A DNA stretch of 64,000 bases from Anaerolineae bacterium (GCA_046328525.1 JAXLWK010000004.1:212221-276220); one strand, 5' to 3'. Counted from the stretch's first letter, positions 5,196-64,000 are shown. Notes: generated from the sequence alone by a model not told the origin. Made by a program: numbers and translations.

Positions 5196-5214
5196 GGCAA
5201 GAGGATAGCAGAGG

Positions 5215-7839: not shown

Positions 7840-7878
7840 CCAGAGCATTTTGTGGTAGCGTTTTGTAGCGCCAGCAGG

Positions 7879-7987: not shown

Positions 7988-8034
7988 GGCCGGCGGCGAC
8001 GCGGCCCAGGGTTATTTACATGGGCGCGGCAGGC

Positions 8035-11487: not shown

Positions 11488-11625
11488 GGGGGCGTGGGGG
11501 GCGAAGCTCCCCACTGGCGAAGCAATCTCGCGGTAGGTGTATGTAGGGGCAGGTTTGAAACCTGCCCCTACGGAGACGGGGGATTGCTTCGCTCCACTCG
11601 CAATGACGGTCTTATACTCAGGAGG
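11488..11625. repeat. Composite repeat: family C element (..gcgaagcaatctcgcgg...ggattgcttcgctccactcgcaatgacgg) enclosing the hairpin gtaggggcaggtttgaaacctgcccctac (family F)
   Basis: The same hairpin recurs at 49516-49546. The family C termini match 14714-14835 and 61588-61702. Confidence 0.7.
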
Positions 11626-19203: not shown

Positions 19204-19363
19204 CGTGAATTCCTCTCATACGGGCATTCGCTCGGGTCAATCCCCTTTATTATAGGCCAGGACGGTGCATGAACCCTGTCTCGACGGCGACGCTGCAATT
19301 GGCCGCTGGCCCCTGGTTCTATATAATAGTACGTCATTGTCGTCGCCAACACCGGGGGGTCAA

Positions 19364-34949: not shown

Positions 34950-35096
34950 CTCGAGAGTAACTCTCTACCCGCTCTTGGAGCTAACACTTGGCGTCGGGGT
35001 TTTCGGGGAGCGATGCGAAGTACTCCATAAGGGAGTTCCTCATGGACGTGTGTCCACCAGCAGACGGATGAAAATCGCTGTCAGCCCGAACGCCAG

Positions 35097-35207
35097 GTCC
35101 GCCCGCCGCTGAAGCAGCGGGCTACGAATGGAAGCCTGAGAGGCTGCCGCTCCGGCTTCCCCAGCCCCTTGGGCTTCCATCCTTAGCCGTAGGCTTGAGC
35201 CTACGGC
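35097..35207. repeat. Family A dispersed repeat (reverse orientation)
   Basis: gcccgccgctgaagcagcgggctacgaatggaagcctgagaggct...ccttagccgtaggcttgagcctacggcg. Confidence 0.8.
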
Positions 35208-35280
35208 GACCGGCGACGAGGCGGCCCAGGGTTATTTTCAAGGGAGGGCCGGCGGGTAACTCCGCATCCATTTGAGCCTG

Positions 35281-39232: not shown

Positions 39233-39306
39233 GAATGACCTCTCAGGGGGGTGAAAAAGACTCCAGCCCTACGGCCTGGGGTGGCGTAGGGCTGGACCTA
39301 TCGAAG

Positions 39307-39397
39307 GCGGAGGGGGAGGGATTTGAACCCTCGACGGGGGGTTAAGCCCCCGTAGGCGCTTAGCAGGCGCCCGCACTAGACCTGGCTATGCGACCCC
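39307..39397 (-). tRNA. tRNA-Ser (anticodon GCU)
   Basis: The reverse complement is GGGGGGGTCGCATAGCCAGGTCTAGTGCGGGCGCCTGCTAAGCGCCTACGGGGGCTTAACCCCCCGTCGAGGGTTCAAATCCCTCCCCCTCCGCC. Long variable arm, anticodon loop CTGCTAA, T-arm GGTTCAAATCC. Confidence 0.8.
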
Positions 39398-39520
39398 CCC
39401 AGGCTGCGGAAGGTATTATAACACACTCCGGCGGCGTGGTCAAGCGATAGTGACGGGGTGACGGAGTGGCAAAGTGGCGTTCACATCGTCACTTCCTCAC
39501 ATCGTCACCCACTCTCACAA

Positions 39521-39610
39521 GGCGGAGGGAGAGGGATTCGAACCCCCGATGAGGACAAGCCCCATAACGGTTTTCAAGACCGCCGCATTCAACCGCTCTG
39601 CCATCCCTCC
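39521..39610 (-). tRNA. tRNA-Ser (anticodon UGA)
   Basis: The reverse complement is GGAGGGATGGCAGAGCGGTTGAATGCGGCGGTCTTGAAAACCGTTATGGGGCTTGTCCTCATCGGGGGTTCGAATCCCTCTCCCTCCGCC. Anticodon loop CTTGAAA, long variable arm. Confidence 0.85.
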
Positions 39611-39717: not shown

Positions 39718-39990
39718 CGTCATCGCGAGCGTAGCGAAGCAATCCCGCGCCCTTGCATCACGTGGTCTAGTCGAGAAATAGCGCCGCGTTCGCCTACCGC
39801 GAGATTGCTTCGGCAGTGGGGAGCTTCGCCCCCCACACCCCCGAAAGAAGCCCGCCTGCTATGAAAGTTCGTTCGGGCCGCGTCGTCGCCGGCCCAGGCG
39901 AACTTTCCTGGCAAGAGATGGGAACGCCAAGGCGCAAAGACGCAAAGGGGAACATCGCGTTATCTTTCTTTGCGCCTCTGCGCCTTGGCG
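39718..39990. repeat. Intergenic repeat cluster (family C copy plus family E gcaaagacgcaaag...ctctgcgccttggcg)
   Basis: tcatcgcgagcgtagcgaagcaatcccgcg...cgcgagattgcttcggcagtgggg and ggcgcaaagacgcaaaggggaacatcgcgttatctttctttgcgcctctgcgccttggcg (compare 49790-49870). Confidence 0.6.
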
Positions 39991-40125
39991 TTCCTGTCCT
40001 CTTCGCGCAACCCGAAAGCCTGCTATAGCCTGCCTCTCACCCGGCGGGAGGCTGCTTCGTCCTCCTATCGTCGTCCTCGCAGCGACGCCGTATCTCGCGG
40101 GCGAAGCAGTCACCCCGTCACCCTC

Positions 40126-41397
40126 TCACTTCCCGGCCGGCGTGATGACGTCCACGCGCATGTAGGGGCGCAGCGCCTCCGGCACGACGACCGTCCCATC
40201 CTCCTGCTGGTAGTTCTCCAGAATGGCGATGACCGCGCGCGGCATCCCCACGCCCGAGCCGTTGAGCGTGTGGACGTACTCCGGCTTGCCCCGCGCCTCG
40301 CGGCGGAAGCGGATGTTGGCCCGCCGCGCCTGGAAGTCCTCCACGTTCGAGCACGAGCTGACCTCCAGCCACTCATCCTGGCCCGGCGCCCACACCTCGA
40401 TGTCGTAAGTCTTGGTCGAAGCGAAGCCCAGGTCCCCCGTCGCCAGGAGCTTGGTGCGGTACGGCAGGCCGAGACGAGCGACCGTCTCTTCAGCGTCGGC
40501 GGTCAGGCGCTCCAACTCGGCGTAGCTCGTCTCCGGCAGGACGAACTTGTACATCTCCACCTTGTCGAACTGGTGGCCGCGCTTGATGCCGCGCACGTCG
40601 CGCCCGGCTGCCATCTTCTCGCGGCGGAAGCACGGGGTGTAGGCCGTCCAGTTCATCGGTAGCTGGGCCGCGTCCAGAATTTCGCCAGACGGGATGTTGG
40701 TCAGCGGAACCTCAGCCGTCGGCACCAGCCAGAAGTCCTCCTCCGCGTCGTGGTAGAGGTTGTCGCGGAACTTGGGCAACTGTCCCGCGCCCCACATGCA
40801 CGCCTCGCGCACCATGAACGGCGTGTACATCTCGGTGTAGCCCTGATCGGCGTGCAGGTCGAGCGCCCACTGGATCAGCGAGCGCTGGAGGCGCGCGCCC
40901 AGGCCCTTGAGGACGTAGAAGCGCGAGCCGCTGAGCTTGATGCCCGCCTCGAAGTCTATGATGCCGAGCGCCTCGCCTAGCTCCCAGTGGGGGCGCGGCG
41001 CGAAGTCGAACTGGCGCGGCTCGGCCACCTCGCGGACGATGACGTTGTGGCTCTCGTCGCCGAGGGGCACGTCCGGCGCCGGGACGTTGGGGACCTCACG
41101 CAGCAGGGCGTCGCGCTCCGTCTCCACCGCCGCGACCGTCGGCTCCATGTCCTTGATCCGGTCGCCCAGGGCGCGCATCGCCTCGATGTGAGCGGGGCGC
41201 TCCTCCTTCGGCAGCTTGCCGGTCTGTTTCGAGCCGGCGTTCAGCTCGGCCTTCAGCGTCTCGATCTGGTACAGAAGCGAGCGCCGCTGCTCGTCCAGGG
41301 CCAGGATGCGGTCCACGATGCCCGGATTGTCCTCGCGCTTGACCAGCGCCGCGCGCACGGTGTCGGGATTCTCCCGCATCAGGTTGATGTCTAGCAT
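40126..41397 (-). CDS. serS: Serine--tRNA ligase
   Basis: [21 protein letters not shown]... (coiled-coil tRNA-binding arm) and class II core ...[27 protein letters not shown]...[24 protein letters not shown]. Confidence 0.9.
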
Positions 41398-43494: not shown

Positions 43495-43917
43495 CGCGCC
43501 GAGCGCCGGCATCTGCGGAAAGGAGAACGAGCCGCCCATCGTCCCCTCGTTGGAGACGGGGCGGCTCGTTCTGGGAGTCGCAGTTGCGCGTGGCGCGCGC
43601 ACGCATAGAATTGAGAGCAGAAGACCCGGCCAACGAGCGATTCCAAAAGCGAATCTAGTAGCGCATCGAGTAGCGAATCTATTAGAACCTGGCTGTATAC
43701 TCGTTCTGTGGGCCTCCCCAGCCGGCGGCTCGTCGTCTACGACGAAGGGCAGCCATTCCAGCCTCCTGCCCAATCGCGGCATCTGCGTCACCCATCCAGT
43801 ACATCGTACGTCTAACTCAGAGCCACGTGCTGGTGATCAAACCCGGTTCTCCATCCGAAGGTTCCGCCGCTCATGGTTCCCGTCCAGGCTGCACGACGGG
43901 AAGAAAGGCTGCTGGTG

Positions 43918-44913
43918 ATGGCTCTCCTACGTATCGCATTGTTGGGTGGCGTCACAGTCGCGCATGATGGCATCTCGGCGCCGTTGAAAATCACCCGCAC
44001 GGGCCAGACGTTGCTGGCCTACATGATGATCAATGGGTATCGTCAGCACCCCCGCGATGTCCTCGCCGATCTCATCTGGGGCGAACAGACGCAGACGCAG
44101 GCGCACCGCTGCCTCAGCACGGCGCTGTGGCGGCTCAGGCGCGAGCTGGAGCCGCCGGGCGTGCCGCGCGGCACGTACCTGATGACCTCCGCCAGCGGCG
44201 ACATCGGCTTCAACTGGGAGAGCGATCACTGGCTGGACGTCGCCGCCTTCGAGAGTCAGCTCGGCGACGCCCTCGCCCGCCCGCTCGAGCAGATGGAGCC
44301 GGCCGACGCCGACCGCATCGAGGCCGGCTTGAGGCTGTACCGTGGCGACTGTCTCGAAGGGTTCTACGATCACTGGGCTTTGGCGCACCGCGAGCACCTG
44401 TTCTGCCTCTACCTGAACGGCCTGACGCGCCTGATGCGGTTCCACGCCCGGAACGGACAGTACGAGGCGGGCTTGAGCTACGGGCTGAAGGCGCTCCAGC
44501 ACGACCCGCTGCGGGAAGAAACGCAGCGCGAGGTCATCCGCCTGTACTGGCTGACCGGGCAGCGCTCCCAGGCGATCCGCCAGTACGAAGCCTGCCGCAC
44601 GCTCCTGGCGAACGAGCTGGGCATCGCGCCCATGGAAGAGACCCAGGCCCTCTACCACCAGATCAGCCAGGAGCCGGCCGAGCCGCACGGTGGGTCGCCC
44701 GCCCTCGCCCAACTCGCCGACAGCCCCGCGCCGCCGGTCGAGCTGCGCGCCGTCGCGCCCCCCACCTCCACCGCCCTCGCCAAGCCGACGGAGCTGTCGG
44801 ACATCGAGTTGCGCCTGGAGGAGGCCATCCGAATGCTCAACCGAGCGAGCGACCACCTTCAGAGTGTCGTTCGCTTGTTGGAGGAACAGACGCTGCACCA
44901 GGGCCAGCGATAG
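43918..44913 (+). CDS. SARP (AfsR/DnrI/EmbR)-family transcriptional activator: OmpR-type winged-helix plus BTAD domain
   Basis: MALLRIALLGGVTVAHDG...LLAYMMINGYRQHPRDVLADLIWGEQTQTQAHRCLSTALWRLRREL... then the TPR-like BTAD (...LYRGDCLEGFYDHWALAHREHL...QYEACRTLLANELGIAPMEETQALY). Confidence 0.75.
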   Translation: MALLRIALLGGVTVAHDGISAPLKITRTGQTLLAYMMINGYRQHPRDVLADLIWGEQTQTQAHRCLSTALWRLRRELEPPGVPRGTYLMTSASGDIGFNWESDHWLDVAAFESQLGDALARPLEQMEPADADRIEAGLRLYRGDCLEGFYDHWALAHREHLFCLYLNGLTRLMRFHARNGQYEAGLSYGLKALQHDPLREETQREVIRLYWLTGQRSQAIRQYEACRTLLANELGIAPMEETQALYHQISQEPAEPHGGSPALAQLADSPAPPVELRAVAPPTSTALAKPTELSDIELRLEEAIRMLNRASDHLQSVVRLLEEQTLHQGQR

Positions 44914-44964
44914 CGCCGGGCGAGTGGTCGTCCGTCAGGATGCGTCGTGAGCGGCCGTCGCCGC

Positions 44965-45075
44965 CGTAGGCTCAAGCCTACGGCTACTCATGCAAGCCCA
45001 AGGGGCTGGCGGAGCCGGAGCGGCAGCCTCTCAGGCTTGCACTCGTAGCCCGCTGCTTCAGCGGCGGGCGGGCCT
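44965..45075. repeat. Family A dispersed repeat
   Basis: gtaggctcaagcctacggctactcatgcaagcccaaggggctggcggagccggagcggcagcctctcaggcttgcactcgtagcccgctgcttcagcggcgggcgggcc. Confidence 0.8.
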
Positions 45076-45185
45076 GGCGTTCGGGGCGAGCATCCGGGGG
45101 TTTCTTGTGTCGGCGCATGCCGTGCCAACGGCATGGGAGTCTTGGCGTGACAGCCCAGGGATTTCAAAAGGAGGAAGATGCGTTA

Positions 45186-48028
45186 TGCCCGATACGACAA
45201 ACACGCCGTTCGATCCGCCCCTGCCAGGCGACTGGGCCAGGGGCATTGACGTGGCGGTCTGGCAGCAGGGGCTGGACTGGGCCGCCATCGCCCAGGCCGG
45301 CTTCGGGTTCGCCTTCGTCAAAGCCACGGAGGGTGACGACTACACCGACCCCGCCTTCGCCGGCCACTGGCAGGCCGCCCGCGACCACGGCCTGCTGCGC
45401 GGCGCGTATCACTTCTTCTGGCCGGAAGACGACCACGAGAAGCAGGCGCGGCTGTTCGTCGAGACGGTCAAGCAGCTCGAAAGCGACGACCTGCCACCGA
45501 TCATAGATGTCGAGGCGCGGCCCAAAGCGCCGCCGTTCCCCAACGAGCAGTGGGTTGACGGCGTGCGCACCTGGCTCGACATCGTGGAGAATGGGCTGGG
45601 CCGCCGCCCCATGATCTACACCAGCCCCGGTGAGTGGGCGCACCTGCGCGATGGCTCCGGCCTGCCGCCGACCTGGACGGCGCGCTATCCGCTGTGGGTC
45701 GCCCACTGGGACACGGCGCAGCCCGCCCTGCCGGACGGCTGGGACAACTGGTTCTTCTGGCAGTACAAGGCCGACAGCGTGCCCGGCTTCAGCCGCGCCG
45801 TGGACTACGATGTCTTTCGCGGCTCGCGGGACGATCTGCGCCGCTGGCTGACCGGATCGGCGAGCGGCCCGGCGCTGACCGCCACAGCCGCCGCCGCCCC
45901 GACGCGCCCGTCCTTCCCGCTGCGGGTCAGCTACATCAATCAGATCGAGTCCGATGGCAGCGGGCACGACAACTGCGGCCCCTGCTGCCTCACCATGGCC
46001 CTCTCGTCCATCGGGCAGGTCGCGGCGGCAGCCGAGTCGTCGCTGCGCGATATCATGCACCGGGTGTCGGCCGAGCTGAAGGGGACCGACTGGAGCACGC
46101 CGGTCTTCACCGACTTCGACGGCATGGGGCGTTACCTGGACGGGCGACGCATCGCCCACCGCGCCCTCCGCACCTGGCAGAGCGTGGAGCAGACGCTCGA
46201 CGCCGGCCAGCCCGTGATCCTGCGGCTGTGGAACGGCGCGCTGGAGCCGTATGCCTACGGCGCGGGGCCTGGCTGGGTGTCCAAACACTTCATCGTCCTG
46301 CTCGGCTACACCGACACCGCCTACTACGCCGCCGACCCGCTGACCTTCCCGCGCCGCGACCTGGTGCAGTACACGCGCGACAGTGTGCGCCGCGCCGTCG
46401 CCCGGGTGCGCAGCGATGCGGGGCTGTCGTTCGAGGTGGACGCCTTCGTCGTCGGCGATCCGCCGTCCGTCGCGCCGACCCCCGGCCCGATGCTGATAGA
46501 CCCCATCGATTCCGCCATCAGCGATGCCCAGCTTCAGGCCTATCTGGAGCAGTACCTCAAGAAGCAGGGGCAGAGCCTCAACATGGACAGCGCCATCATG
46601 CGCGCGGCTGCCCTGGCCTATCGGCGCGGGGAGACGCGCGGCCCGGCCCTGTCGCTGGAATACAACGTCAAGCTCGACAGCGGCCAGATTGTGTCACGCC
46701 AGGATTTCACGGCGAGCGTCGCGCAGCGCGACCCGCAGACGAACCAGGTCACCTGGCTGGAGGTCGTCCTCCACCCGGACGAGCTGAAGCGCGAACACCT
46801 GGCCGAGACCCTGGACGGACGAGCGGCCGAGCCGGAGGTCCCGTTCCCCACGCGGGCGGCGGGCTTTGTTCGCCGCGAGAACGGCGAGCTGCGCCTGGAT
46901 GGGCAGCCGTTCAAGTTCGTCGGCGTCAACACGCGGGAGCTTCTTCACTATGGCAATCACGCCATCGTTCCGCAGAACTGCAACGAGGAACAGATCGGGC
47001 AGCAGCTCGACGCCGCGCGCCTGATGAAGGCCAGCGTCGCCCGCGTTTTCCTGGCCCACCGCGCCTATGACCCCGCCTCCCTGGCGGCCGAGGTGGGCGA
47101 CCGGCTGGCCGCCGCCCTGGACATCGCCTGCGGGCCGGTGGACAACCTGCGGCCGGACGCGGTCCGCCTCCTCGTCGCCTTCACCGACTACAACAGCGGC
47201 CGCGGCTACTACCCGCGCCAGGACGAGCCGTTCTTCAACCCGGCCGGCTTCCTCGAAGGGGCCGACTGGTACAACGGCCAGTGGCGCGCCAACTACTGGC
47301 CGTTGGTCGAGGCCATCGTGGGCCGCTTCAAGAACGACCCGCGCATCTTCGCCTGGGAGGTGGGCAACGAGCTGAAGCTACCGGCCGACCCCGAAACCTT
47401 CCTCGGCTTCATGACTCTCGTCACGTCGGAGATCAAGAAGCTGGACCCGAACCACCTCGTCGGCGCGGGCATCATCAGCACGCTCCACTGCGCCTTCGAC
47501 GACGTGCAGGCGGGCCGCTTCTATGCTAACCCCAACCTCGACTTCGCCACGCTCCACCTGGCCGGGAGCGGCGCAGACTACCCGCATCTTCCCCCGCTGG
47601 CCGAGTTCGCCGACAATCCGGATGAGGGGCGGCGGCGGGCGTATCTCGCCCACGAGCTCGCCCTGGCCGGAGCGACCGCCAAGCCGCTCATCGTCGAGGA
47701 GGCGGGCTACCTGCCGCCGGAGATGCCGCGGCTGGAAGACCTGGCGACGTATGCGTTCACGGCGGGCGCTGTCGGCTTCCTACCGTGGGGCTTCTCCGGC
47801 TTCCCCGACCAGAAAGACCGCGATGTCGGCGACAACAGGTTTGGCCTCGGCAACTTCCCGCCGCACTTCGACGCTGGTCTGTTCGACCAGGTGATCCACG
47901 GGCTGGCCGCCCTCGTGATGGGCCAGTTCGCGCCGGGCGGTGACCGGGGAACCCTGTCGCCCCCGCCGAAGAAGCCCGGGCGGCGGCGCTCCACCCGCAA
48001 GGCCCCGCCCAAGCCCCCCAAAGGCTGA
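45186..48028 (+). CDS. Multi-domain cell-wall hydrolase/lysin: GH25 muramidase, C39-like peptidase domain and GH5-like TIM-barrel glycosidase domain
   Basis: MPDTTNTPFD... GIDVAVWQQGLDWAAIAQAGFGFAFVKATEGDDYTDPAFAGHW...GAYHFF...WFFWQYKADSVPG..VDYDVFRG (GH25 signature). ...SYINQIESDGSGHDNCGPCCLTMALSSIGQ (Peptidase_C39_2-like). ...FKFVGVNTRELLHYG...RIFAWEVGNELK (GH5-like NE motif). The track ORF start 44990 over-extends. Confidence 0.7.
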
Positions 48029-48045
48029 GACAACCCAAGATCGTG

Positions 48046-48077
48046 ATAGCCGTGTGACGTTCGCGTGACACGGCTAT
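48046..48077. promoter_or_regulatory. Perfect 13-bp inverted repeat (operator or terminator candidate) between the lysin and the tail cluster
   Basis: atagccgtgtgacgttcgcgtgacacggctat followed by gttattatgggcac (a -10-like tattat). Confidence 0.4.
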
Positions 48078-48186
48078 GTTATTATGGGCACACGCGTCGC
48101 GGTATGCCGAGTCACCCGGTGATCCCCTCATCGTGATGTCTTTGCAGCAGCCGAAGTAACAGTAGGAGCTGAACGCAAGAGACAGC

Positions 48187-48387
48187 ATGGCAGCCGACGA
48201 CTACGCCCACGTGTTTATCCTGCGCATCTGGCGCGAGCCTCGTGAGATAGCGAACGCTCCCCCAGAGTGGCGCGGCGTGATTGAGCATTTCTCGGATGGG
48301 CATCGGCAGTCTGTCTCCGGGTTGGAGGACATCAACGCCTTCTTGTTGTCATACCTGGAGCGCATGGGTGTAGACCCCACCCCATAG
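48187..48387 (+). CDS. Small protein (66 aa), unknown, first gene of the tail-like cluster
   Basis: MAADDYAHVFILRIWREPREIANAPPEWRGVIEHFSDGHRQSVSGLEDINAFLLSYLERMGVDPTP. Confidence 0.4.
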   Translation: MAADDYAHVFILRIWREPREIANAPPEWRGVIEHFSDGHRQSVSGLEDINAFLLSYLERMGVDPTP

Positions 48388-48395
48388 GTGTGTGC

Positions 48396-49487
48396 ATGAG
48401 CTCTGTGTTTCGCCGCCATCGCCCCGAAAACCCGCCGGAGTCTCAGCCGGCCCTGCCGCCGCCCGAGTCGTCCGCCGTCATGGCGGCGCCGGCGCCGCCA
48501 GCCGTCGCAGCCGAGGCCATCGCCGGCGATTCGGGCGGCTTCACCCCAACCTCGGACATAGACCCATTTCTCGGCCAGATGCTCCTCCTGCTGAGCGACA
48601 TGGCCGGCCTGGCCCGCGCGCCCGGCGACAAGCCCAACGCCGGCGTGCGGCTCCTCGGCCTGACGCCGCGCCCCCTTGGTCTCGGCGGGCGGCGCGGCCT
48701 GCTCAACCAGCCGGCGCTGGCGGTGGCGGAGCTGCGCGGCGGCTGGCTCGAAGCCGTCATCGGCTACACCGTGTCCGGCGCGGACCTCGACAGTGTGAAC
48801 GGCCAGTCCGACGCGATTGTCAGCCGCCTGCTGGCGCGCAGCGTGGACCTGCGCCGCGAGGGCGTCCTCCAGCTCCGGCTCACCGACACGGCGGACGGCG
48901 AGGCAGGCGGGACGCCGCCGACCGTGCGGCGGACGCTGACCTACAGCGTCCTGTACGAATACCGCTACTTCGACACCGACGGCGCGGCCAGCCTGATCGC
49001 CCGCATCCCGGTGGACAGCGAGACGGACCTGGGGCCGCTGACCCACGAGCAGACCGTCGTCACCGATTGGATGGCGCGCTGGGACGGCCAGGGGGCCGCC
49101 GCGCTGGAAGTGAGTCCGCCGCCGCGCGGCGTGCTGCGCGTGGGCGGGCTGAGCATTGTCGCCTATCTACCGGGCGGCGGCCCGACGGGCCAGGTCACGC
49201 AGACGGTCGTCCAGAACGGCAGCACGACGACCACGCCCCTGGGGTCGCTGGTGGACTTCCTCAACCTGTTCCAGCGCGACACGGCCCGCCCGCTGACCCT
49301 GGTGTTCCCGCCGCCGCCGCTCTTGCCGGGCGAGACCCTGGAGCTGCACGACTACCAGGTCGGCGAGCTGCGCTTCAACCCGCCGATTGTGCTGCAAGGG
49401 GCGGGGGACGTGTTCCGGGTGAGCTTCAGCGAGACGTCCTTTCCGCCGAGCAACGCCAGTGTCGTCTATCTGCGTGTGCTGAAATGA
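48396..49487 (+). CDS. Hypothetical protein (364 aa) in the tail-like cluster
   Basis: MSSVFRRHRPENPPESQ... Pro/Ala-rich N-terminus, then a globular part (...RRTLTYSVLYEYRYFDTDGAASLIARIPVDSETDLGPLTHEQTVVTDWMARWDG...). No recognisable family. Confidence 0.45.
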   Translation: MSSVFRRHRPENPPESQPALPPPESSAVMAAPAPPAVAAEAIAGDSGGFTPTSDIDPFLGQMLLLLSDMAGLARAPGDKPNAGVRLLGLTPRPLGLGGRRGLLNQPALAVAELRGGWLEAVIGYTVSGADLDSVNGQSDAIVSRLLARSVDLRREGVLQLRLTDTADGEAGGTPPTVRRTLTYSVLYEYRYFDTDGAASLIARIPVDSETDLGPLTHEQTVVTDWMARWDGQGAAALEVSPPPRGVLRVGGLSIVAYLPGGGPTGQVTQTVVQNGSTTTTPLGSLVDFLNLFQRDTARPLTLVFPPPPLLPGETLELHDYQVGELRFNPPIVLQGAGDVFRVSFSETSFPPSNASVVYLRVLK

Positions 49488-49515
49488 CCGTCACCGTCGC
49501 CGTAGCGACGCGCCC

Positions 49516-49890
49516 TGGTAGGGGCAGGTTTGAAACCTGCCCCTACCACCCATCAGTAGGCAGTTCTCTATCTTTGCACTTCTTGGGTCGGGGAGGTTTG
49601 GAGGGGCATGCCCCTCCAAATTCCCCCTTGTCCCATCCGCCAGCGGAGGTGAAGTGCCACCTCGCGCACGAGGGAATGGGGGAGAATTGTGGGGGCCTGC
49701 GGCCCCCACTGCCCCCGCGAACGCAAAGTGCAAAGATAGAGGCAGTTGAAAATGCCACGCATTGCCGCTCGTAGGTTTCGGAGAGGAAGGAAACGCAAAG
49801 ACGCAAAGACGCAAAGGGGGAAGATCAAGAGCCTCTTCTTTCTCTGCGCCTCTGCGCCTTTGCGTTACTATCCCATTTTCAACGGAGGCC
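49516..49890. repeat. Hairpin-rich intergenic region upstream of the sheath gene: family F hairpin, palindrome gaggtttggaggggcatgcccctccaaa, and a family E element flanked by ttgaaaatgg...ccattttcaa inverted repeats
   Basis: ggtaggggcaggtttgaaacctgcccctacc; ggggaggtttggaggggcatgcccctccaaattcccc; cgcaaagacgcaaagacgcaaaggggg...ctctgcgcctctgcgcctttgcgtt. Confidence 0.6.
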
Positions 49891-49912
49891 ACGCGCCTCA
49901 GGAGGTTTGCCG

Positions 49913-51355
49913 ATGCCTGAGTTAGTCTTGCCGGGAGTGTACATTGACGTCCGCGCCGAGGCCCTCATCGTCCCCGGCCCGATCACCGTGGGCAACATCG
50001 GGATCGTGGGCACCGCGAACCGTGGCCCCGTCGGCGAAGTCCAGGTGCTTAGCTCCTACGCCGACGCCCGCGCCATGTTCGGCGGCTACGACAAGTTCGA
50101 CGCGCCCGACACCGCCAACAACCCGTTGACCCTGGTGCGCGCCCTGGAGATCGCTTACTCCCACGGCGCGGCCACCGTGTTCGCCGTCCGCGTCGCGTCT
50201 AGCTCGGCTGCCGCCGCGAAGCCGGCGAGCAACATCGCCGGCACCAACGTCGGCCTCGAAGCCCTCTCGCCCGGCTCCTGGGGCAACGGCCTGACGGTGA
50301 CGGTCGGCGCCGCCGACACCGGCGGGAACATCCCCCTCACCCTCCGCCTGGGAAGCGCGGAGGAGACGTTCCTGGTCAAGACGGCCCAGGACATCGTGCA
50401 GCGCATCGGCGACGCGCGGAACGGCTCGCTCCTCGTCAAGACGGCGGTGACTGGCTCGCCGACCGGCAATGTCACGGCCGCCAGCGGGACCCCGACGCCC
50501 CTGCCGTTCAGCGGCGGCAAAGACGGGGCGGACGTGGCCGAGACTGACTACAAAGCCGGGCTGGAGCTTCTCCTCAACGAGAACGCCCAGATCATCCTCG
50601 CCGCCGGGCAGGACATCACCCAGGCCGGCGCCGACCTGAAGGCCCACGTCGAGGCGGCGTCCACCGACAAGATCAAGCGCGACCGCATCGCCGTCGTCGG
50701 CAGCGCGCCGGCCGGCAGTAACCCGTCGGCGTTCCTGACGAGCCTGCTCAGCCCGACCGTCACCGGCGACCGCGTCATCTTCGTCGCGCCGGGCATCAAG
50801 ACGGTGGACGCGGCGAAGGCGGCAGACCGCACCATCGCCGACCCGACGGTGACGCTGCCGGGCGCGTACTCGGCGGCGGCCATCGCCGGCATGCTCTCGG
50901 CGCGCGACCCGCACATCAGCCTGACCAACAAGACACTGAACGTGGCGGACCTGGAGGTACACTTCAACGCCGGCCAGCTCGAGCAGCTCGTGCAGAACGG
51001 CGTCCTCGGCCTCGAAGTCCGGCGCGGCGTGCGCGTCGTCAAGGGCATCACCACCGATCTCGGCCCGTTCCAGCAGATTACGACGCGGCGCATCGTGGAC
51101 TTCGCCAAGCTCGGCGTGCGCTCCGCGTGCGATCCCTTCATCGGCCTGCTCAACAACGACCGGGTGCGCCAGGCGCTCAAGGGCGCGATCAACGGCTTCC
51201 TGGCGGGCATGGTGGACGACGAGATGCTGGAGAGCTACGCCCTGGACGTGTCGGCCACGCGCGACCAGGAGATTCGCGGCATCGCCCAGGTCACGATGAC
51301 CCTGCGCCCGACGTTCAGCATTGACTACATCAAGGTAACGATGTTCCTCGGTTAA
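49913..51355 (+). CDS. Contractile tail sheath protein
   Basis: SD AGGAGG. MPELVLPGVYIDVRAEALIVPGPITVGNIGIVGTANRGP... is the canonical sheath N-terminus. ~480 aa. Confidence 0.8.
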   Translation: MPELVLPGVYIDVRAEALIVPGPITVGNIGIVGTANRGPVGEVQVLSSYADARAMFGGYDKFDAPDTANNPLTLVRALEIAYSHGAATVFAVRVASSSAAAAKPASNIAGTNVGLEALSPGSWGNGLTVTVGAADTGGNIPLTLRLGSAEETFLVKTAQDIVQRIGDARNGSLLVKTAVTGSPTGNVTAASGTPTPLPFSGGKDGADVAETDYKAGLELLLNENAQIILAAGQDITQAGADLKAHVEAASTDKIKRDRIAVVGSAPAGSNPSAFLTSLLSPTVTGDRVIFVAPGIKTVDAAKAADRTIADPTVTLPGAYSAAAIAGMLSARDPHISLTNKTLNVADLEVHFNAGQLEQLVQNGVLGLEVRRGVRVVKGITTDLGPFQQITTRRIVDFAKLGVRSACDPFIGLLNNDRVRQALKGAINGFLAGMVDDEMLESYALDVSATRDQEIRGIAQVTMTLRPTFSIDYIKVTMFLG

Positions 51356-51367
51356 GGAGACTGCCCC

Positions 51368-51877
51368 ATGGCGAACACCAATGTGTACACCGGGTCGGAC
51401 GCGACCCTCACCCTCGCCGTCGAGGCCGGCGCAGAGGGTGACGCGGCCAAAGAGATCATCGAGTTCTACGGCCTCAGTCCCGTCGGGCGCGCGACCAACG
51501 TCGAGGTGCTGGTGACGACCTCCGTGCAGCCGTTCCACGAGATCGGCCGCCGCCACCCGGCGTCCCTCAGCGAAGGCAACATTGACGTGACGGGCAAGAT
51601 CGGCCGCGCCTTCATCAACGGCGCTCTCCTGCGCCTAATGCTCGGCAAGGGCGCGCTGGTGGAGCGCAGCAACACCCCGTTCCCGCAGCCGTCCTTCAAC
51701 CTGCAATTGCTGGCGCGCAACCCGGCCCTCCCGGACACCAACAGCACCCTGACCATCCACGGCGTCAAGTTCGATAGCTGGGTGTTCAACCTGCCCGAGG
51801 ACGACTTCCTCATGGAGGGCGTGACGTTCAAGGGCCTGTTCATCACCATCGAGGACAAGGAAGCCACCGGAGGCTGA
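51368..51877 (+). CDS. Tail tube protein (gp19/FII-like)
   Basis: SD AAGGAGAC. 169 aa immediately after the sheath. MANTNVYTGSDATLTLAVEAGAE... Confidence 0.55.
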   Translation: MANTNVYTGSDATLTLAVEAGAEGDAAKEIIEFYGLSPVGRATNVEVLVTTSVQPFHEIGRRHPASLSEGNIDVTGKIGRAFINGALLRLMLGKGALVERSNTPFPQPSFNLQLLARNPALPDTNSTLTIHGVKFDSWVFNLPEDDFLMEGVTFKGLFITIEDKEATGG

Positions 51878-51882
51878 GCCGT

Positions 51883-52350
51883 ATGACCCTCACCGCTGAA
51901 GAGCTTCTGGCCGGTGGCGCGCTGACCCACGTCGTGGACCTACCGGCGGACCTGCTCAACACCCACGGCGGCGGGCCGGGCGGCCAGGTCATCCTGCGCC
52001 CGCTCACCGTGCGCGACCTCCAGCGCATCGGCAAGGCGGCCAGGGACGACGACAGCCTGTCCGCCGCGCTGATGGTGCAGCAGTCCCTCGTCGAGCCGCC
52101 GCTCAAGCTGGAGCAGGTCACGCAGCTGCCGGCCGGCGTGGCGCGCTTCCTCGTCGAGCGTGTCAACGCCATCAGCGGCATAGACACGCCCCGCGACGCC
52201 CTCGAAGAGCTGGTGCAGGCCCCGCTGGCGAAGGCGTGCTTCATCCTGGCCCGCGAGTTTGGCTGGACGCCCGAAGAGGTCAGCGGCATGACCATCGGCC
52301 AGATTCTGCTCTACCTGGAGATGGCCCGCGACGGGAGGGCAGGCGCATGA
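51883..52350 (+). CDS. Small protein in tail-assembly-chaperone position
   Basis: 155 aa between tube and the long Pro/Ala-rich protein. Stop/start ATGA overlap with the next gene. Confidence 0.3.
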   Translation: MTLTAEELLAGGALTHVVDLPADLLNTHGGGPGGQVILRPLTVRDLQRIGKAARDDDSLSAALMVQQSLVEPPLKLEQVTQLPAGVARFLVERVNAISGIDTPRDALEELVQAPLAKACFILAREFGWTPEEVSGMTIGQILLYLEMARDGRAGA

Positions 52351-53585
52351 GGCCGCGCCCACAGCCGCCGTTCCGGGCGGGCCTGGCCCTCGCCGCCTAT
52401 GGGCGGCAGATGGCGCGGCGCACCGCGTGGACCGCGTGTCTGATTCGCGGCAGCCGCTGGCTCGCGCCGCTCCTGGCTCCTCACCACCCGCTGCGCGCCG
52501 GCCCGCTGCTCGGACCGACCCTCGCCGCATTGGCGGCCGACGCCGATGGGCCGCCGGAGGAGCGGGCCGCGCCGCCCCGCCGCCAGGCGCAAGTGACGCC
52601 CACGCGGCCCGACGGGACCCCGCGCGGCCGCCCCGCCCCAATGGACACGGGGGCGGAGACGCCCGCCGCGTCCGGGACGCCAGGCCGCAACGCGGCGCGG
52701 GCCGCCGCTCCCCACCATCCGCCCGATGCTCCGACGCCTTCGCGCCTCGCTGCCCGCGTGGCCGAGCTGCCGCGCCAGGCGTCCCCGGCGCTGCTGGCAG
52801 GGTTCGCGGGCGCGGCGTCGCGGGCGGTGAGCCGCGCCCCACGGACCGACGCCCCCGGCGCGGCGTTGGGGCCGGGGAGCCGACTCCAGGCGGACGGCGT
52901 CGGTGGGGTCAGCCCCAGGCCGAGTGGCGTGGTCTGGCCGGCGGCCGACGGGCCGGCGGGCCGCGACTGGGCAGCGACCCCGATCGAGCGCGTGATAGGC
53001 GCTGTGCAGGCCGCTGGCGGTGGGCGCGACGCGGGACAGCTCCCCGTCTCAGCCGCGTCGTTCGAGGCGGCGTTGTCCACGCGGCTGGACGGCCCAACTG
53101 CGCCGCTGTTCGTTCTGACGCGCTCGATCCAGCTGGCGTCCGATGCGTCCGCGGGCGACGCCGCGCCGAACCGGGCGGAGGCGGCGGCAGCGCCCCCGGT
53201 ATCGGATGCCCCGCGCCCCGCGCCCCTGCCGAGTCCGCCGCCGGCGCGGCCCGCTACCAACCCGCCTCTGCGGACCGACGGCGGCGCGCCCTTCGCGCCC
53301 TCGCTGTGGGGGATGCTGGACTACCCAGTCGCGGCGTCGGCGTTCGCTCCGCCCGGACCGGACCCGGAGACGACGGTGCGCGTCGTCAACCCAACCCTGG
53401 CGCCGCGGCTGCCGTTCCTGACGCCCTCGGAGCCGGGCGGGCCGCCCGACCTGCCGCTGGCGGCGGCGACGGCGCGGCAGGGGGCATGGGCTGAGGCGGC
53501 GGGCGAGGACGACCTGGAGGCGTTGGCCGCGAAGCTCAAGCGCATCCTGAACGAGGAGGCGCGGCGGCATGGGATAGGGGTGTGA
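52347..53585 (+). CDS. Pro/Ala-rich low-complexity protein (412 aa) with a conserved-looking C-terminal helix; occupies the tape-measure position
   Basis: MRPRPQPPFRAGLALAAYGRQMARR... ...DDLEALAAKLKRILNEEARRHGIGV. Functional assignment is by position only. Confidence 0.35.
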   Translation: MRPRPQPPFRAGLALAAYGRQMARRTAWTACLIRGSRWLAPLLAPHHPLRAGPLLGPTLAALAADADGPPEERAAPPRRQAQVTPTRPDGTPRGRPAPMDTGAETPAASGTPGRNAARAAAPHHPPDAPTPSRLAARVAELPRQASPALLAGFAGAASRAVSRAPRTDAPGAALGPGSRLQADGVGGVSPRPSGVVWPAADGPAGRDWAATPIERVIGAVQAAGGGRDAGQLPVSAASFEAALSTRLDGPTAPLFVLTRSIQLASDASAGDAAPNRAEAAAAPPVSDAPRPAPLPSPPPARPATNPPLRTDGGAPFAPSLWGMLDYPVAASAFAPPGPDPETTVRVVNPTLAPRLPFLTPSEPGGPPDLPLAAATARQGAWAEAAGEDDLEALAAKLKRILNEEARRHGIGV

Positions 53586-54133
53586 CGATGCGACCGATGT
53601 TGGATGACCTGGAGCTGCCGCAGGTGCAGGAGATTGCGACCGTCGAGCGCCGTAGCCTGGCCGAGCACAAGCCGCCCGGCATGGACGGCAGCCTGTTGCA
53701 GAACCTGGGGCGGCGGCCGACGCGCCTGGCCCTGTGGGGCGTGGCGACCGGCCCCGACGCGCGGGCGTTTCTCGAAAAGCTCGACGGCAAGCTCCGCGAC
53801 GGCAAGCCCGTGCCGTTCACGGCCGACATCATCGCCGACGCCGCGATTGACCAGGTCGTGATTGACGATATGCAGGTACAGGAGCTGGCAGGAAAGCCGG
53901 ACCGCTTCGCCTACGTCCTCACGTTGCGCGAGTACATCGAGCCGGTCGAGCCGCAGGACACGTCGGCGCTGGACACGGACATCCTGGGCGCCGCGACGAA
54001 GCTCATCGAAGACATGGTGCCCGGCCTGGACCTGGGCCTGAACCTGACGACGGGCCTGGAACAGTTCATCGCCCCGTTGAGCGACCTGCTCGGACGCTTG
54101 CAGGCGGCCAACCGCAGCATGGGACGCAGTTAG
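53582..54133 (+). CDS. Tail-cluster protein, paralog A (unknown function)
   Basis: (V)TMRPMLDDLELPQVQEIATVERRSLAEHKPPGMDGSLLQNLGRRPTRLALWGVATGPDA... is homologous to 54594..55220. Confidence 0.45.
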   Translation: MTMRPMLDDLELPQVQEIATVERRSLAEHKPPGMDGSLLQNLGRRPTRLALWGVATGPDARAFLEKLDGKLRDGKPVPFTADIIADAAIDQVVIDDMQVQELAGKPDRFAYVLTLREYIEPVEPQDTSALDTDILGAATKLIEDMVPGLDLGLNLTTGLEQFIAPLSDLLGRLQAANRSMGRS

Positions 54134-54151
54134 AGAGAAGGAGCACGAGAC

Positions 54152-54574
54152 ATGGCAACGACACCGACCAACCTGTTCGAGGACCTGAAGTCGGCGCTCA
54201 CGACCTTCAAGACCTTCCTGGACCAGAACGTTCCGACCATCAAGCCCGCCATCCAGGCCCTGCGCTCGCTGATCCCGCAGATCACTGACCTGCTCAACAA
54301 GCTGGTGGACCTGATGAACAGCATCAAGACGGAAGTGGATCGCCTGGCGAGCCAGCCGATTCCGGGCGTGGACAAGGTGAGCCAGTTCACCCAGGGCATC
54401 ACGTCCCTGCTGACCACGGCCAAGAATCTGCTGCCCGACCAGGCCGGCACGATTGACGACGTGCTGTCGGTGGCCCAGGTCGTCGGCAGCCTGCCGTCGG
54501 TCGGCCAGATCAAGGCCGAGATTGACAGCCTGATTGACGCCGTCGTGACCCACCTGCGCAACCTGAACTCGTAG
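54152..54574 (+). CDS. Small alpha-helical protein (140 aa) in the tail cluster
   Basis: SD AAGGAG. MATTPTNLFEDLKSALTTFKTFLDQNVPTIKPAIQALRSLIPQITDLLNKLVDLMNSIKTEVDRL... Confidence 0.4.
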   Translation: MATTPTNLFEDLKSALTTFKTFLDQNVPTIKPAIQALRSLIPQITDLLNKLVDLMNSIKTEVDRLASQPIPGVDKVSQFTQGITSLLTTAKNLLPDQAGTIDDVLSVAQVVGSLPSVGQIKAEIDSLIDAVVTHLRNLNS

Positions 54575-54593
54575 TCTCGCGGCGAGGACTTCC

Positions 54594-62567: not shown

Positions 62568-64000
62568 ACGGCGCAACCCTGAACCTCATCGAGCGGCCCT
62601 ACGCCGAGGTCGTGGACGACATCCTGACGGCCATCGTCGGCGGCGTGGTCAACGAGCCGATCTTCTTCGACCTCAAAGAGGACAGCTACCGCCTGTCTCA
62701 ACCGGCCAGCGACGTGCGCTCCATCACCGGCGCGCGCACCCCGCCCGGCGCGGCGGACGCGCAGCACGTCGCGTTCCAGAAGGGGCAGGACTTCGACTTC
62801 GACAGCGTCGCCAACACGGTCATCTGGCGGCCGAAGGGCGCGCACCCCGACGACGAGACGACGTTCTACGTGGACTACTTCCTGCGCGACGCCAACCCGC
62901 CGCTGACCGACATCAACGTCGGCAGCGTGACGCGCACCCTCAGCGAGGCCATCAGCGTCGAGATCGCCACGGTCTACCAGCAGATTAACCAGGCCTACCT
63001 GGCCGGGTTCATTGACACCGCGGCCGGCAAGTCCCTGGACCTGGTCGTGTCCATCCTCGGTGTGACGCGCAAGACGGCCGAGTACGCCCAGGGCCTGGCG
63101 ACGTTCTACCGCGACCCGGCGGTGCAGGGCGTCGTCACCATCGCCGAGGGCCTGAGCCTGAGCACCGACAAGGGCGTGACCTTCGTCACCAGCGAGCTGC
63201 GCACCATGCAGCGCGGCCAGGTGCGCATTGACGTGCCCATCCGCGCGACGGACGCCTCGAAGGGGCCGCTCGGCCAGGTCGGGCCGAACACCATCACCAC
63301 CCTGGCGCAGCCGCTGGCCGGCATCGGCCGCGTGACCAACCTCGAAGCGACCCAACTCGGCGCGGAGGCCGAAACCGACGAGCAACTGCGCGCCCGCGCC
63401 CGCGCCGTCCTGCGCGGCCTGGGCAAGGCGACCCTGGCGGCGCTCATCCAGGCGCTGTTCGATGCCCGCGCCAACCTGCTCGAAGTCTGGGACCCCAACG
63501 GTCCACCCGGCAAGACCCCGCCCGCCGCCGGCATGGTGACGCTGCTCATTGACACGCCGCCGGAGCGGTTCGCCGACGCCCAGGGCCGTGTCGAGGAGAC
63601 GCGGGCGGCCGGCGTCCAGGCGACCCTCGTCGCCAAGTACATTTTCTTCCGGCCGCGCCTCGTCATCCGCGCCACCCGCGACCTGACGCCCGACGGCAAG
63701 CTCAAGCTGGTCGGCCAGGTGGTCGAGGCGCTGGGCGGCGTGGCCGACACGCTGACGGCCGGCCAGCCAGCGAAGGGCAAGGAGCTGCTCGACGCGGTCA
63801 AGAAAGTACCGGACGTGGCGGGCGACGGCGCGAACGCCCCGCGCTTCGTGGACGTGATGGCCTGGCAGTCCGACATCGGCCAGCCGGCCGCCGCAACGCT
63901 CGTCAATGCCCTCGTGGACGCCGTCGCCGCGACGCCCACCGACGCGGACGCCCTGCGCGCCGCCTTCACCCGCATCGTGAACGACAGCGGGCCGGTCGCC
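62564..64000 (+). CDS. Baseplate J-like (gpJ/gp6) protein, 3' end beyond the window
   Basis: GTG start overlapping the gp25 stop (GTGA). VNGATLNLIERPYAEVVDDILTAIVGGVVNEPIFFD... ...GPNTITTLAQPLAGIGRVTNLEATQLGAEAETDEQLRARARAVL are typical Baseplate_J motifs. Confidence 0.7.
   Translation, partial: MNGATLNLIERPYAEVVDDILTAIVGGVVNEPIFFDLKEDSYRLSQPASDVRSITGARTPPGAADAQHVAFQKGQDFDFDSVANTVIWRPKGAHPDDETTFYVDYFLRDANPPLTDINVGSVTRTLSEAISVEIATVYQQINQAYLAGFIDTAAGKSLDLVVSILGVTRKTAEYAQGLATFYRDPAVQGVVTIAEGLSLSTDKGVTFVTSELRTMQRGQVRIDVPIRATDASKGPLGQVGPNTITTLAQPLAGIGRVTNLEATQLGAEAETDEQLRARARAVLRGLGKATLAALIQALFDARANLLEVWDPNGPPGKTPPAAGMVTLLIDTPPERFADAQGRVEETRAAGVQATLVAKYIFFRPRLVIRATRDLTPDGKLKLVGQVVEALGGVADTLTAGQPAKGKELLDAVKKVPDVAGDGANAPRFVDVMAWQSDIGQPAAATLVNALVDAVAATPTDADALRAAFTRIVNDSGPVA

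Follow-up and report, generated by a model that had tools for sequence, protein, structure and literature searches.

A SARP-linked, leaderless predicted cell-wall hydrolase upstream of a contractile tail cluster in an Anaerolineae bacterium

Producer lysis is the route by which tailocins are released (PMC4684702, PMC7815802), and R-type tailocin cassettes, such as those of pyocin R, the Pseudomonas Rp tailocins and diffocin, carry a wall hydrolase beside a head-less contractile cluster. A similar neighbourhood is found in a 64,000-nt stretch of Anaerolineae bacterium DNA (GCA_046328525.1 JAXLWK010000004.1:212221-276220; 68% G+C), hereafter the window, in which the gene for a predicted cell-wall hydrolase, the lysin, lies directly upstream of a contractile tail cluster and downstream of a SARP-type activator gene. 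Our analysis was computational throughout and compared sequences, predicted structures and synteny. It favours, with a probability of roughly 0.55, the reading that the lysin is a SARP-controlled, leaderless effector of autolysis or programmed death, co-regulated with the tail cluster but separable from it. Unlike the tailocin cassettes, the locus has no holin or spanin, the lysin accompanies 2 of at least 11 clusters, and a hairpin precedes the tail genes.

In its layout the lysin may be compared with the LysA-type endolysins of actinobacteriophages, which join an N-terminal peptidase, a central GH25, GH19 or amidase domain and a C-terminal binding domain; it is likewise leaderless and combines a cysteine peptidase and a GH25 domain with a binding module of the C-terminal type. 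Peptidase_C39_2 is recognised in the literature as an endolysin domain, and one protein that shares the lysin's middle module (P0109; GH25-LysM-C39_2-middle module) has essentially a LysA-like layout. Unlike LysA endolysins, the lysin lies outside any phage or lysis cassette, in a chromosomal operon with a SARP and without holin or LysB. It has an extra GH5 barrel past the binding module, and its GH25 part alone matches phage records. The surroundings expected of a phage holin-endolysin cassette are missing: no holin was found in 39-64 kb, and there are no head or integrase genes.

Single domains of the lysin have well-described counterparts. The N-terminal domain is like Cellosyl, the GH25 enzyme of Streptomyces coelicolor (1JFX), with the Asp/Asp/Glu residues aligned. 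Cellosyl is a secreted single-domain enzyme, whereas the GH25 domain of the lysin heads a 947-aa leaderless fusion. With the GH5 beta-mannanases and mannosidases (1QNO, 4AWE, 1UUQ, 1RH9) the lysin's GH5 domain shares the fold and the catalytic Asn-Glu...Glu; unlike them, it belongs with a nearer clade that is leaderless and fused to peptidoglycan modules, and it is only 16-20% identical to them.

Two further kinds of system are comparable in their surroundings. Lysozyme and papain-like peptidoglycan peptidase effectors have been noted in conflict systems of multicellular bacteria (Kaur et al. 2020, PMC7159879); no mention of a GH5-like glycosidase was found in the text of that paper or of its 2021 sequel. 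As in these nucleoside triphosphate (NTP)-dependent systems, relatives of the lysin's GH5 domain lie in operons with caspase, CHAT, patatin/LCAT, SIR2, nSTAND and effector-associated domain (EAD) genes, and one lysin orthologue (locus L001) precedes an LCAT-CHAT gene. Unlike the conflict-system effectors, the lysin gave no EAD match in a domain search, no STAND NTPase was detected among the window's open reading frames (ORFs) scanned (39-64 kb), and the regulator is a SARP. Contractile injection systems (CIS) have been linked to cell death in Streptomyces, in Anabaena (thylakoid-anchored) and in Roseiflexus (cytoplasmic), likewise with a filamentous host, a contractile cluster and regulated lysis. 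According to excerpts of the respective papers, Streptomyces CIS mediate stress-induced death, with envelope-targeting effectors proposed (PMC10066040); Anabaena ghost cells arise even when the CIS is missing, and invariably lack an outer membrane and peptidoglycan (PMC8894136); and Chloroflexota make intracellular CIS (PMC12998442). A peptidoglycan hydrolase is not mentioned in those excerpts. Unlike these CIS, the tail cluster studied here is Mu-like in order.

Domain architecture of the lysin and relatives of its GH5 domain

The original prediction described a three-domain lysin (GH25 muramidase, C39-like peptidase and GH5-like glycosidase) without a signal peptide at 45186-48077. The ORF is real, but it starts one base earlier than that (Table 1). 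AAAGGAGG is located 8 nt 5' of the start codon, and the codon-position GC of the gene (0.70/0.48/0.91) matches the local coding signature. A database record with the identical protein is entitled "MAG: GH25 family lysozyme [Anaerolineae bacterium]", MAG standing for metagenome-assembled genome. No signal peptide is predicted in the lysin, in agreement with the original prediction, or in any orthologue, and no transmembrane segment is present in any of the four lysin orthologues. Translation from another ATG in the same frame, at 44990, would lengthen the protein by 65 residues that include a twin-arginine-like leader. This leader was rejected as non-coding because GC at third codon positions is low (0.60, versus 0.91 in the gene) and because the stretch falls within a repeat element, whose consensus contains the ATG and which is missing from all orthologues. 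At its other end the protein closes with a basic, proline-rich tail whose composition is kept in the four orthologues.

Domain searches, together with PDB and structure matches, agree on the three catalytic domains, all with intact catalytic residues. The GH25 domain scores 141.6 bits against a curated Pfam cut-off of 27, and its nearest solved homologue is Cellosyl 1JFX (E=1e-31). D22, D108 and E110 of the lysin line up with the GIDVS and LDIE motifs of Cellosyl and are invariant across the four orthologues; we take them to be the counterparts of Asp9, Asp98 and Glu100, the proposed catalytic Asp/Asp/Glu of that enzyme. The papain-like Peptidase_C39_2 domain scores 40.2 bits (gathering cut-off 24), and its residues C264 (NCGPCC), H368 (KHFIVLLGY) and D384 are likewise invariant in the four orthologues. 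Peptidase_C39_2 recurs together with SLT and GH25 domains in other lysins; here the domain presumably cleaves a peptide stem or cross-link.

For the third catalytic domain, the PDB matches found with phmmer are GH5 mannanases (best 1e-7), and a precomputed annotation assigns PF26410 (GH5_mannosidase), the local Pfam copy giving a weak GH2_C match alone. An AlphaFold model of the full-length lysin, from a 4-sequence alignment, was unusable (predicted local distance difference test score, pLDDT, 34); a model of the GH5 domain, from a 34-sequence alignment, reached a pLDDT of 92.5 and was used instead. In Foldseek its best matches were GH5 beta-mannanases and mannosidases (TM-score 0.65-0.70), and nearly all of the top 30 were GH5 enzymes (TM-score 0.55-0.70). 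The Asn-Glu acid/base pair is N728/E729 (WEVGNE; N176/E177 of the domain) and the nucleophile is E839 (IVEEAG; E287 of the domain). Among 34 GH5 family members E177 and E287 are invariant and N176 is nearly so.

A fourth conserved module, which the three-domain description had overlooked, lies between the peptidase and the GH5 barrel. It has no significant match in Pfam or the PDB, and none in phage databases. An exhaustive HMMER search found it in 40 cluster representatives at E<=1e-3, most of which carry it at or near the C-terminus. In 9 of the 10 representatives scanned it follows SLT+C39_2, Amidase_2, C39_2, GH25+LysM+C39_2 or M23; the tenth has no Pfam match. We propose that it is a probable wall-binding domain because of this C-terminal placement in other peptidoglycan hydrolases. 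A metagenome scan with the module gave nine loci, mostly short, which yielded one extra full-length lysin (L062) and an Amidase_2 protein with the same module among housekeeping genes (L063).

The relatives of the GH5 domain fall into two sets. The more distant ones carry signal peptides and are classical secreted enzymes. The leaderless clade, delineated by profile search, is fused to M23, VanY/M15, PG_binding_1/3, SH3_3 or SLH modules. The operon of its nearest non-orthologous members (P0065-67, 49-50% identical) also encodes a C14 caspase, an LCAT/PGAP1 lipase, a LysM protein and, as a gene of its own, Peptidase_C39_2; it is flanked by EAD7-SIR2 and nSTAND-WD40 genes, and P0068 adjoins C14 caspase, patatin, CHAT-FGE and SIR2-nSTAND genes. 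Across the clade, C14 proteases are neighbours in L018, L021, L060 and L061, patatin or LCAT lipases in L001, L018, L021 and L061, and BTAD regulators in the window, L002, L059 and L060. In L059 a GH5 relative stands with a BTAD-AAA regulator, and in L060 a BTAD gene is joined by a C14 caspase. In L061 the GH5-like gene has a C14 caspase and a Muramidase gene nearby, together with a patatin-M23 fusion; the fusion (3958-6246, +) is a 762-aa, leaderless-looking protein that joins a patatin phospholipase to an M23 peptidase and so would unite an attack on the membrane with one on the wall.

Because it is leaderless and fused to peptidoglycan modules, the nearer GH5 clade is best read as a family of cytoplasmic enzymes directed at the wall, and not as a set of plant-mannan enzymes; its ties are to BTAD regulators, phospholipases and caspase-like proteases. 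For the same reason a wall polymer is a likelier substrate of the lysin's GH5 domain than plant mannan, presumably a wall polysaccharide other than peptidoglycan. Taken together, the domains describe a predicted leaderless wall hydrolase with three cell-wall-cutting domains and a probable wall-binding module. Cell lysis would be the obvious activity of such a multi-catalytic, leaderless enzyme, encoded as it is directly upstream of a tail-only cluster. The fusion of a GH5 domain into a modular wall hydrolase is unprecedented, and it comes with a regulatory and cell-death context.

The SARP-lysin operon, its promoter and the palindrome

Both neighbours named by the original prediction, a SARP gene upstream and a contractile tail cluster downstream, were recovered by domain searches. 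The SARP-type product has a BTAD domain (aa 121-264, 83.4 bits, 2.7e-23) and a Trans_reg_C winged helix (aa 37-95, 24.4 bits, 3e-5), the latter slightly below the cut-off of 26.2. Its orthologue in L002 (genome STL-CHL22), the sole syntenic relative, with 82% protein identity, is 80% identical, and its stop codon lies 20 nt from the lysin start. In the window the gap had been put at 300 bp; it measures 271 nt, and the earlier reading had overlooked that it is a repeat insertion. The inserted stretch is absent from L002, folds at -143.9 kcal/mol (z = -3.6) and carries a GC-rich, multi-hairpin repeat of about 120 nt; neither insertion nor repeat has a family in Rfam. The repeat (CCGTAGGCTCAAGCCTACGG ... 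GCCCGCTGCTTCAGCGGCGGGC), of REP-like (repetitive extragenic palindrome) or MITE-like (miniature inverted-repeat transposable element) look, occurs in 5 copies in the 64 kb at 83-93% identity. Judged by the comparison with L002, the lysin is ancestrally the second gene of a two-gene operon with the SARP activator, and one repeat copy appears to have split that operon in the window.

Upstream of the SARP gene lies a promoter-like region with AGCGAWTC repeats, which give three overlapping matches there and five in the whole window (1.5 expected) and are conserved in L002, L001 and L005. Alignment A4 shows a block, AAGCGA-N6-TAGCGAATCT-N15/16-TAnAnT, that is invariant in four promoters from three genomes. 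Both the window and L002 have it before the SARP-lysin pair. The SARP gene is missing from L001, and there the block comes directly before the lysin and hence before the lysin-LCAT/CHAT pair; in L005 it faces a LuxR-type response-regulator gene abutting the first tail gene. A single exact copy of the 10-mer TAGCGAATCT is present in the window, and likewise one in each of L001, L002/L006 and L005, always in intergenic DNA. The motif thus links the lysin with tail-cluster regulators across three genomes, and the two are probably co-regulated.

The palindrome after the lysin stop differs from its first description as a perfect 13-bp inverted repeat within a perfect 32-bp palindrome. Its arms (48046-48059 and 48064-48077) are 14 nt long and 93% complementary, with the mismatch at 48056/48067, and the longest perfect run is 10 bp. 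As RNA it would fold into a hairpin of -20.4 kcal/mol, 18 nt past the stop codon. Over 37 nt around it, loop and mismatch included, L002 is identical, whereas the adjoining 50-nt windows are 72-76% identical; this contrast argues that the element is constrained, two sequences being too few for a covariation test. Rfam has no match in the region, and when the palindrome was scanned with sigma-70 and terminator consensus patterns, no promoter and no terminator were called. The -10-like TATTAT noted earlier is present just downstream, 8-9 nt past the third of the direct repeats described below, and reads TAATAT in L002; the sigma-70 scan did not call it because a -35 match is missing.

Overlapping the palindrome are three direct YGTGAY repeats with exact 11-nt phasing, the single such site in the window (0.11-0.23 expected) and, among the loci compared, shared with L002/L006 only. 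In each arm the palindrome's lone mismatch coincides with the G of a GTGA core, so that perfecting the palindrome would cost one of the direct repeats. The sites bound by SARPs are not palindromes but two or three direct heptamer repeats, set in units of 11 bp and overlapping the -35 region (PMC10972967). The YGTGAY layout is SARP-box-like in following this 11-bp rule, but its core is short; the 12-nt AGCGAWTC array upstream of the SARP gene is the stronger repeat array. Candidate SARP boxes were also seen in other loci, both intergenic and near a BTAD gene: a triple tandem repeat of 12-nt period (CAAGAGNCGC) at 9640-9680 of L015 and one of 11-nt period (TTCCWCAC) at 5552-5580 of L059. One of these two arrays belongs to a related tail cluster, where it separates a SARP gene from the gene for the sheath.

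The original prediction saw in the palindrome a possible operator coupling lysin and tail-gene expression. A site of this kind, bound by a dimeric repressor in place of an RNA hairpin or a SARP box, would account for the complete conservation in L002 between diverging flanks and for a position exactly between two transcription units, overlapping a promoter-like region. We nevertheless consider it unlikely. Had the palindrome been such an operator, recurrence before other tail genes might be looked for, yet half-site matches (<=3 mismatches) in the window are at chance level (15 versus 14.6 expected) with no second site, no second copy exists in related loci, and the element is absent upstream of the L005 tail cluster. 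No helix-turn-helix repressor gene is found nearby. A stable, UUCG-looped hairpin just past a stop codon might just as well mark where the lysin transcript ends. Most likely the palindrome has two roles, as a hairpin that terminates or stabilises the SARP-lysin transcript at its 3' end, and as part of the putative activator site or promoter of the tail operon.

Synteny with the tail cluster and competing explanations

Full-length homologues of the lysin are few: 4 among 5.8 billion proteins, with L062 from the metagenome scan as a fifth, and the orthologues are 70-84% identical. The gene adjoins the tail cluster only in the window and in L002, where the order is the same (SARP, lysin, p66, 365-aa gene, sheath and so on). 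The left flanks of these two loci differ, homology beginning at about 43500, so promoter, SARP, lysin, p66 and tail genes form one unit in two genomic contexts. In L001 (genome STL-CHL20) the lysin is at the orthologous site, its left neighbour being 90% identical to that of L002, and is followed 29 nt on by an LCAT-CHAT gene with its own ribosome-binding site; the surrounding 10 kb is free of tail genes. STL-CHL20 carries its tail cluster (sheath 89% identical) on a separate contig, L005, where SARP, lysin and p66 are all missing. In L003 and L062 the lysin stands among methyltransferase, phosphatase, DinB/RadC and MGS genes, with no tail genes nearby. Within about 9 kb upstream of nine more distant copies of the cluster (five other phyla and one Chloroflexia MAG) no lysin homologue was found; the genes there are heterogeneous, with no peptidoglycan-hydrolase family among the 25 of 72 Pfam families listed. 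This comparison covers the upstream flanks of the clusters. Linkage of lysin and tail cluster is thus real in a small lineage and is not a property of the tail-cluster family, and the lysin is to all appearance a separable module, not a core tail gene.

These observations bear on the proposal, made in the original prediction, that the gene is the release lysin of the particle locus. A dedicated enzyme of the tailocin kind, whose sole role is to burst the producer and free the particles, would fit a leaderless hydrolase directly upstream of a tail-only cluster, the promoter motif it shares with the tail side, and a SARP-lysin-p66-tail block kept intact in two genomes between different left flanks. 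Holin-lysin cassettes are a familiar part of tailocin loci (PMC4684702, PMC7815802). A need for release can also be argued, since the cluster's 1332-aa OmpA/PG_binding_1/HExxH protein suggests action on walls from outside. Yet the lysin is not conserved with the tail cluster across relatives, as a lysis gene integral to a tailocin or CIS would be: it persists without adjacent tail genes in L001, L003 and L062, is unlinked in STL-CHL20 and has no homologue before the nine other clusters. A hydrophobicity search of 39-64 kb detected no holin-like small ORF with several transmembrane segments, just as none had been obvious to the original prediction, and the lysin appears to be transcribed with the regulator, a conserved hairpin separating it from the tail genes. 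A role in release is thus partly supported, and a dedicated release lysin fairly unlikely; release would be one consequence of an autolysis effector and not a full description of the gene. An injected cargo, that is, an antibacterial effector loaded on the contractile particle in the manner of the peptidoglycan hydrolases of type VI secretion systems, would likewise be leaderless, wall-degrading and encoded beside the injection cluster, and the unusual basic C-terminal tail could be brought in its favour. We hold it to be very unlikely: the lysin does not co-occur with the cluster across the family and persists with no cluster nearby, no cognate immunity gene is evident, and the protein is 947 aa long and contains folded TIM barrels. 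Its gene, moreover, accompanies the regulator on the upstream side, whereas cargo is usually encoded at the distal end.

Adjacency to the tail genes would be coincidental if the lysin were an ordinary autolysin or polysaccharide degrader, serving remodelling, filament fragmentation or feeding. The metabolic surroundings in L003 and L062, the housekeeping surroundings of the Amidase_2 protein with the same middle module (L063) and the secreted nature of the distant GH5 relatives all lend this some weight. The original prediction had reasoned that housekeeping synteny in relatives lacking the tail cluster, for example beside cell-division genes, would speak for such an autolysin; relatives do keep the lysin without the cluster, but the neighbours are not housekeeping or division genes, and in one case an LCAT-CHAT gene is among them. 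Lacking a signal peptide, the lysin cannot reach the wall of an intact cell. This, the operon with a SARP-type activator, the promoter motif common to the tail-side regulator, and the caspase, lipase and BTAD neighbours of the nearer GH5 relatives make an ordinary autolysin unlikely. Even less can be said for a remnant endolysin, left with the tail genes of a decayed Mu-like prophage, which we regard as scarcely probable at all. Its GH25 part does match PHROG endolysin families and actinophage GH25 endolysins (33-37% identity), and the tail genes are in Mu-like order; outside GH25, however, neither IMG/VR nor a set of 50,697 phage genomes contains a match to the lysin, close viral relatives of the sheath are lacking, and head, integrase and holin genes are missing. 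Conservation of all catalytic residues among orthologues of 70-84% identity moreover suggests purifying selection.

The tail cluster opens with a conserved 365-aa first gene, followed by sheath, tube, assembly chaperone, a 355-aa ORF and two small ORFs, and continues with DNA_circ_N, the 1332-aa protein, hub, spike, a gp25-like protein and baseplate J. The 355-aa ORF has no family match and is a possible tape measure by its position only. No cap or ATPase of Afp type was seen in the part of the cluster inside the window. A sheath-based scan with one genome per species found the same cluster in 13 loci of 6 phyla; the hosts are Chloroflexota, Cyanobacteria, Gemmatimonadota (Longimicrobium), Actinomycetota (Blastococcus), Acidobacteriota and a Methanotrichaceae archaeon MAG. 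Common to these loci is the order 365-aa gene, sheath, tube, chaperone, further genes including DNA_circ_N, OmpA/PG_binding protein, hub and spike; in the archaeal MAG (L009) the pair of DNA_circ_N and the big protein is duplicated. The family has almost no relatives in phage databases, and for the sheath phage genomes and IMG/VR gave no close viral relative and a single 22% match.

The 1332-aa protein (55213-59211, +) has N-terminal OmpA-like and PG_binding_1 domains, HExxH motifs at aa 598 and 1236, and weak matches to Peptidase_M78 and eCIS_core. Its N-terminal ~400 aa are conserved in the cluster across phyla, the middle being variable; possible roles are those of a toxin or of a tail component that binds or degrades the wall. 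The ORF p66, without family match, is 89% identical in L002, absent from L005 and all other tail loci, and found solely where SARP and lysin adjoin the tail cluster; small ORFs beside the BTAD-GH5 loci (L059, L060) were compared with it and did not match. The gap between the 365-aa gene and the sheath gene (49488-49906) is ~180 nt longer than in L002 and contains several palindromes, among them those at 49516-49548 (perfect 16-nt arms) and 49785-49873 (40-nt arms). Pieces of it are repeated at 39917-39999 and 11543-11571, and its Rfam matches are meaningless microRNA models only.

Table 1 Features of the lysin locus, with positions counted from the first base of the window
Feature	Position	Strand	Remarks
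Four tandem 12-nt repeats of AGCGAWTC	43636-43683	+	Upstream part of the SARP-lysin promoter region
Promoter-like core, TAGCGAATCT-N15-TATACT (TAGCGAATCT-N15-TGTATACT)	43671-43701	+	Preceded by TG
SARP-type activator gene (OmpR-type winged helix + BTAD)	43873-44913	+	Pfam; ATG at ~43918 may be the real start
Window-specific insertion between SARP and lysin	44914-45170	.	Absent from L002; carries the ~120-nt structured dispersed repeat
Dispersed repeat copies	44962-45085; 35085-35208 (-); 7875-7990 (-); 2197-2306 (+); 2064-2169 (+)		
Lysin gene	45185-48028	+	Single ORF, ATG 45185, stop at 48028, 947 aa, leaderless
GH25 muramidase domain, aa 21-197	45245-45775	+	Pfam PF01183, E=4.4e-41
Peptidase_C39_2 papain-like cysteine peptidase domain, aa 247-385	45923-46339	+	Pfam PF13529, E=6.4e-10
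Unnamed ~100-aa module, aa ~440-540	46502-46804	+	Exhaustive HMMER search
GH5 (clan GH-A) mannanase-like (beta/alpha)8 domain, aa 557-897	46853-47875	+	PDB phmmer, PF26410, AlphaFold/Foldseek
C-terminal tail, basic and proline-rich (GGDRGTLSPPPKKPGRRRSTRKAPPKPPKG)	47936-48025	+	Read from sequence
Three direct YGTGAY repeats (CGTGATAGCCG / TGTGACGTTCG / CGTGACACGGC)	48042-48074	+	Starts 48042, 48053, 48064; exact 11-nt phasing
Imperfect palindrome or RNA hairpin	48046-48077	+	10 bp, G.G mismatch, 3 bp, UUCG loop
-10-like TATTAT	48080-48085	+	TAATAT in L002; 8-9 nt past third YGTGAY
p66, 66-aa ORF (MAADDYAHVFILRIWREPRE...)	48187-48387	+	First gene past the palindrome
Contractile tail cluster, Mu-like order	48390-64000	+	Extends beyond the window end

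Elsewhere in the window, two tRNA-Ser genes (39306-39400 and 39521-39610, both -) adjoin a seryl-tRNA synthetase gene (40126-41397, -) ~4 kb upstream of the SARP-lysin-tail block, with no integrase seen there, and a tmRNA gene (tag ANQPLALAA) occupies 17729-18075 (-). A 1282-aa ORF at 19256-23101 (+) has an unusual codon-position GC of 0.51/0.59/0.89; its product has a signal peptide, is rich in Gly, Thr, Ser and Asn with GGxxYN-type repeats, and has the look of a parallel beta-helix or polymorphic membrane protein.

Proposed mechanism and implications

We propose the following scheme for the lysin as a SARP-controlled autolysis or death effector. The SARP-lysin operon would be driven by the conserved promoter with its tandem AGCGAATC repeats, so that SARP and lysin are produced together once an upstream signal fires. 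The SARP would in turn activate the neighbouring tail operon by acting at the YGTGAY array, whose 11-bp-phased repeats overlap the palindrome. After a breach of the membrane the wall would be degraded, with GH25 cutting the glycan strand, C39_2 the peptide and GH5 a wall polysaccharide, and in the host genome this loss of the wall would free or expose the tail particles. For the crossing of the membrane, partner lipases are the obvious candidates in relatives; here the tail machine may serve, which is speculative.

Several points weigh against this scheme, which as a whole is drawn from sequence comparison. Caspase, lipase and STAND genes were seen as neighbours of GH5-domain relatives that are 31-50% identical, and a tblastn search with the LCAT-CHAT, C14 and patatin proteins of these relatives found no caspase, lipase or STAND gene in the window itself. 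The case for co-regulation is built on a single motif of 10-30 nt, shared by four promoters from three MAGs that are closely related. Pairing of the SARP with the YGTGAY array is weakened because a stricter 6-mer tandem-repeat scan did not recover the array, whose core is just 4-6 nt. For a terminator, the U-tract after the hairpin is weak to moderate (GUUAUUAU, 5/8 U in the window; GCUAAUAU, 3/8 U in L002). Finally, no holin or other export route that would take the enzyme across the membrane is present in 39-64 kb.

A broader and much more tentative proposal, which we think rather unlikely, is that leaderless GH5-like wall glycosidases make up an undescribed class of holin-independent wall-demolition death effectors in filamentous bacteria. 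These enzymes would wait in the cytoplasm under BTAD/SARP control and reach the wall after a partner (patatin/LCAT, a caspase event, or tail firing from inside) has breached the membrane. Within such a class the four-module lysin would be the most elaborate member. If this were true, the tail machine would do the holin's job and the lysin would strip the wall, as in the peptidoglycan-free ghost cells of Anabaena.

In the literature searched we found no description of the repeated pairing of this GH5 clade with BTAD regulators, phospholipases and caspase-like proteases. For enzybiotic engineering, a lysin that combines three catalytic domains with a new binding module may be of interest. The CIS studies in Streptomyces, Anabaena and Roseiflexus report stress-induced lysis, and in the parts of them searched a wall-removing enzyme is not named; the locus described here offers a concrete candidate for such a wall remover, putatively SARP-controlled and leaderless, with three intact catalytic domains. 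If the shared promoter motif is a true regulon mark, it would provide a handle on the trigger of particle production and lysis in uncultured Anaerolineae.

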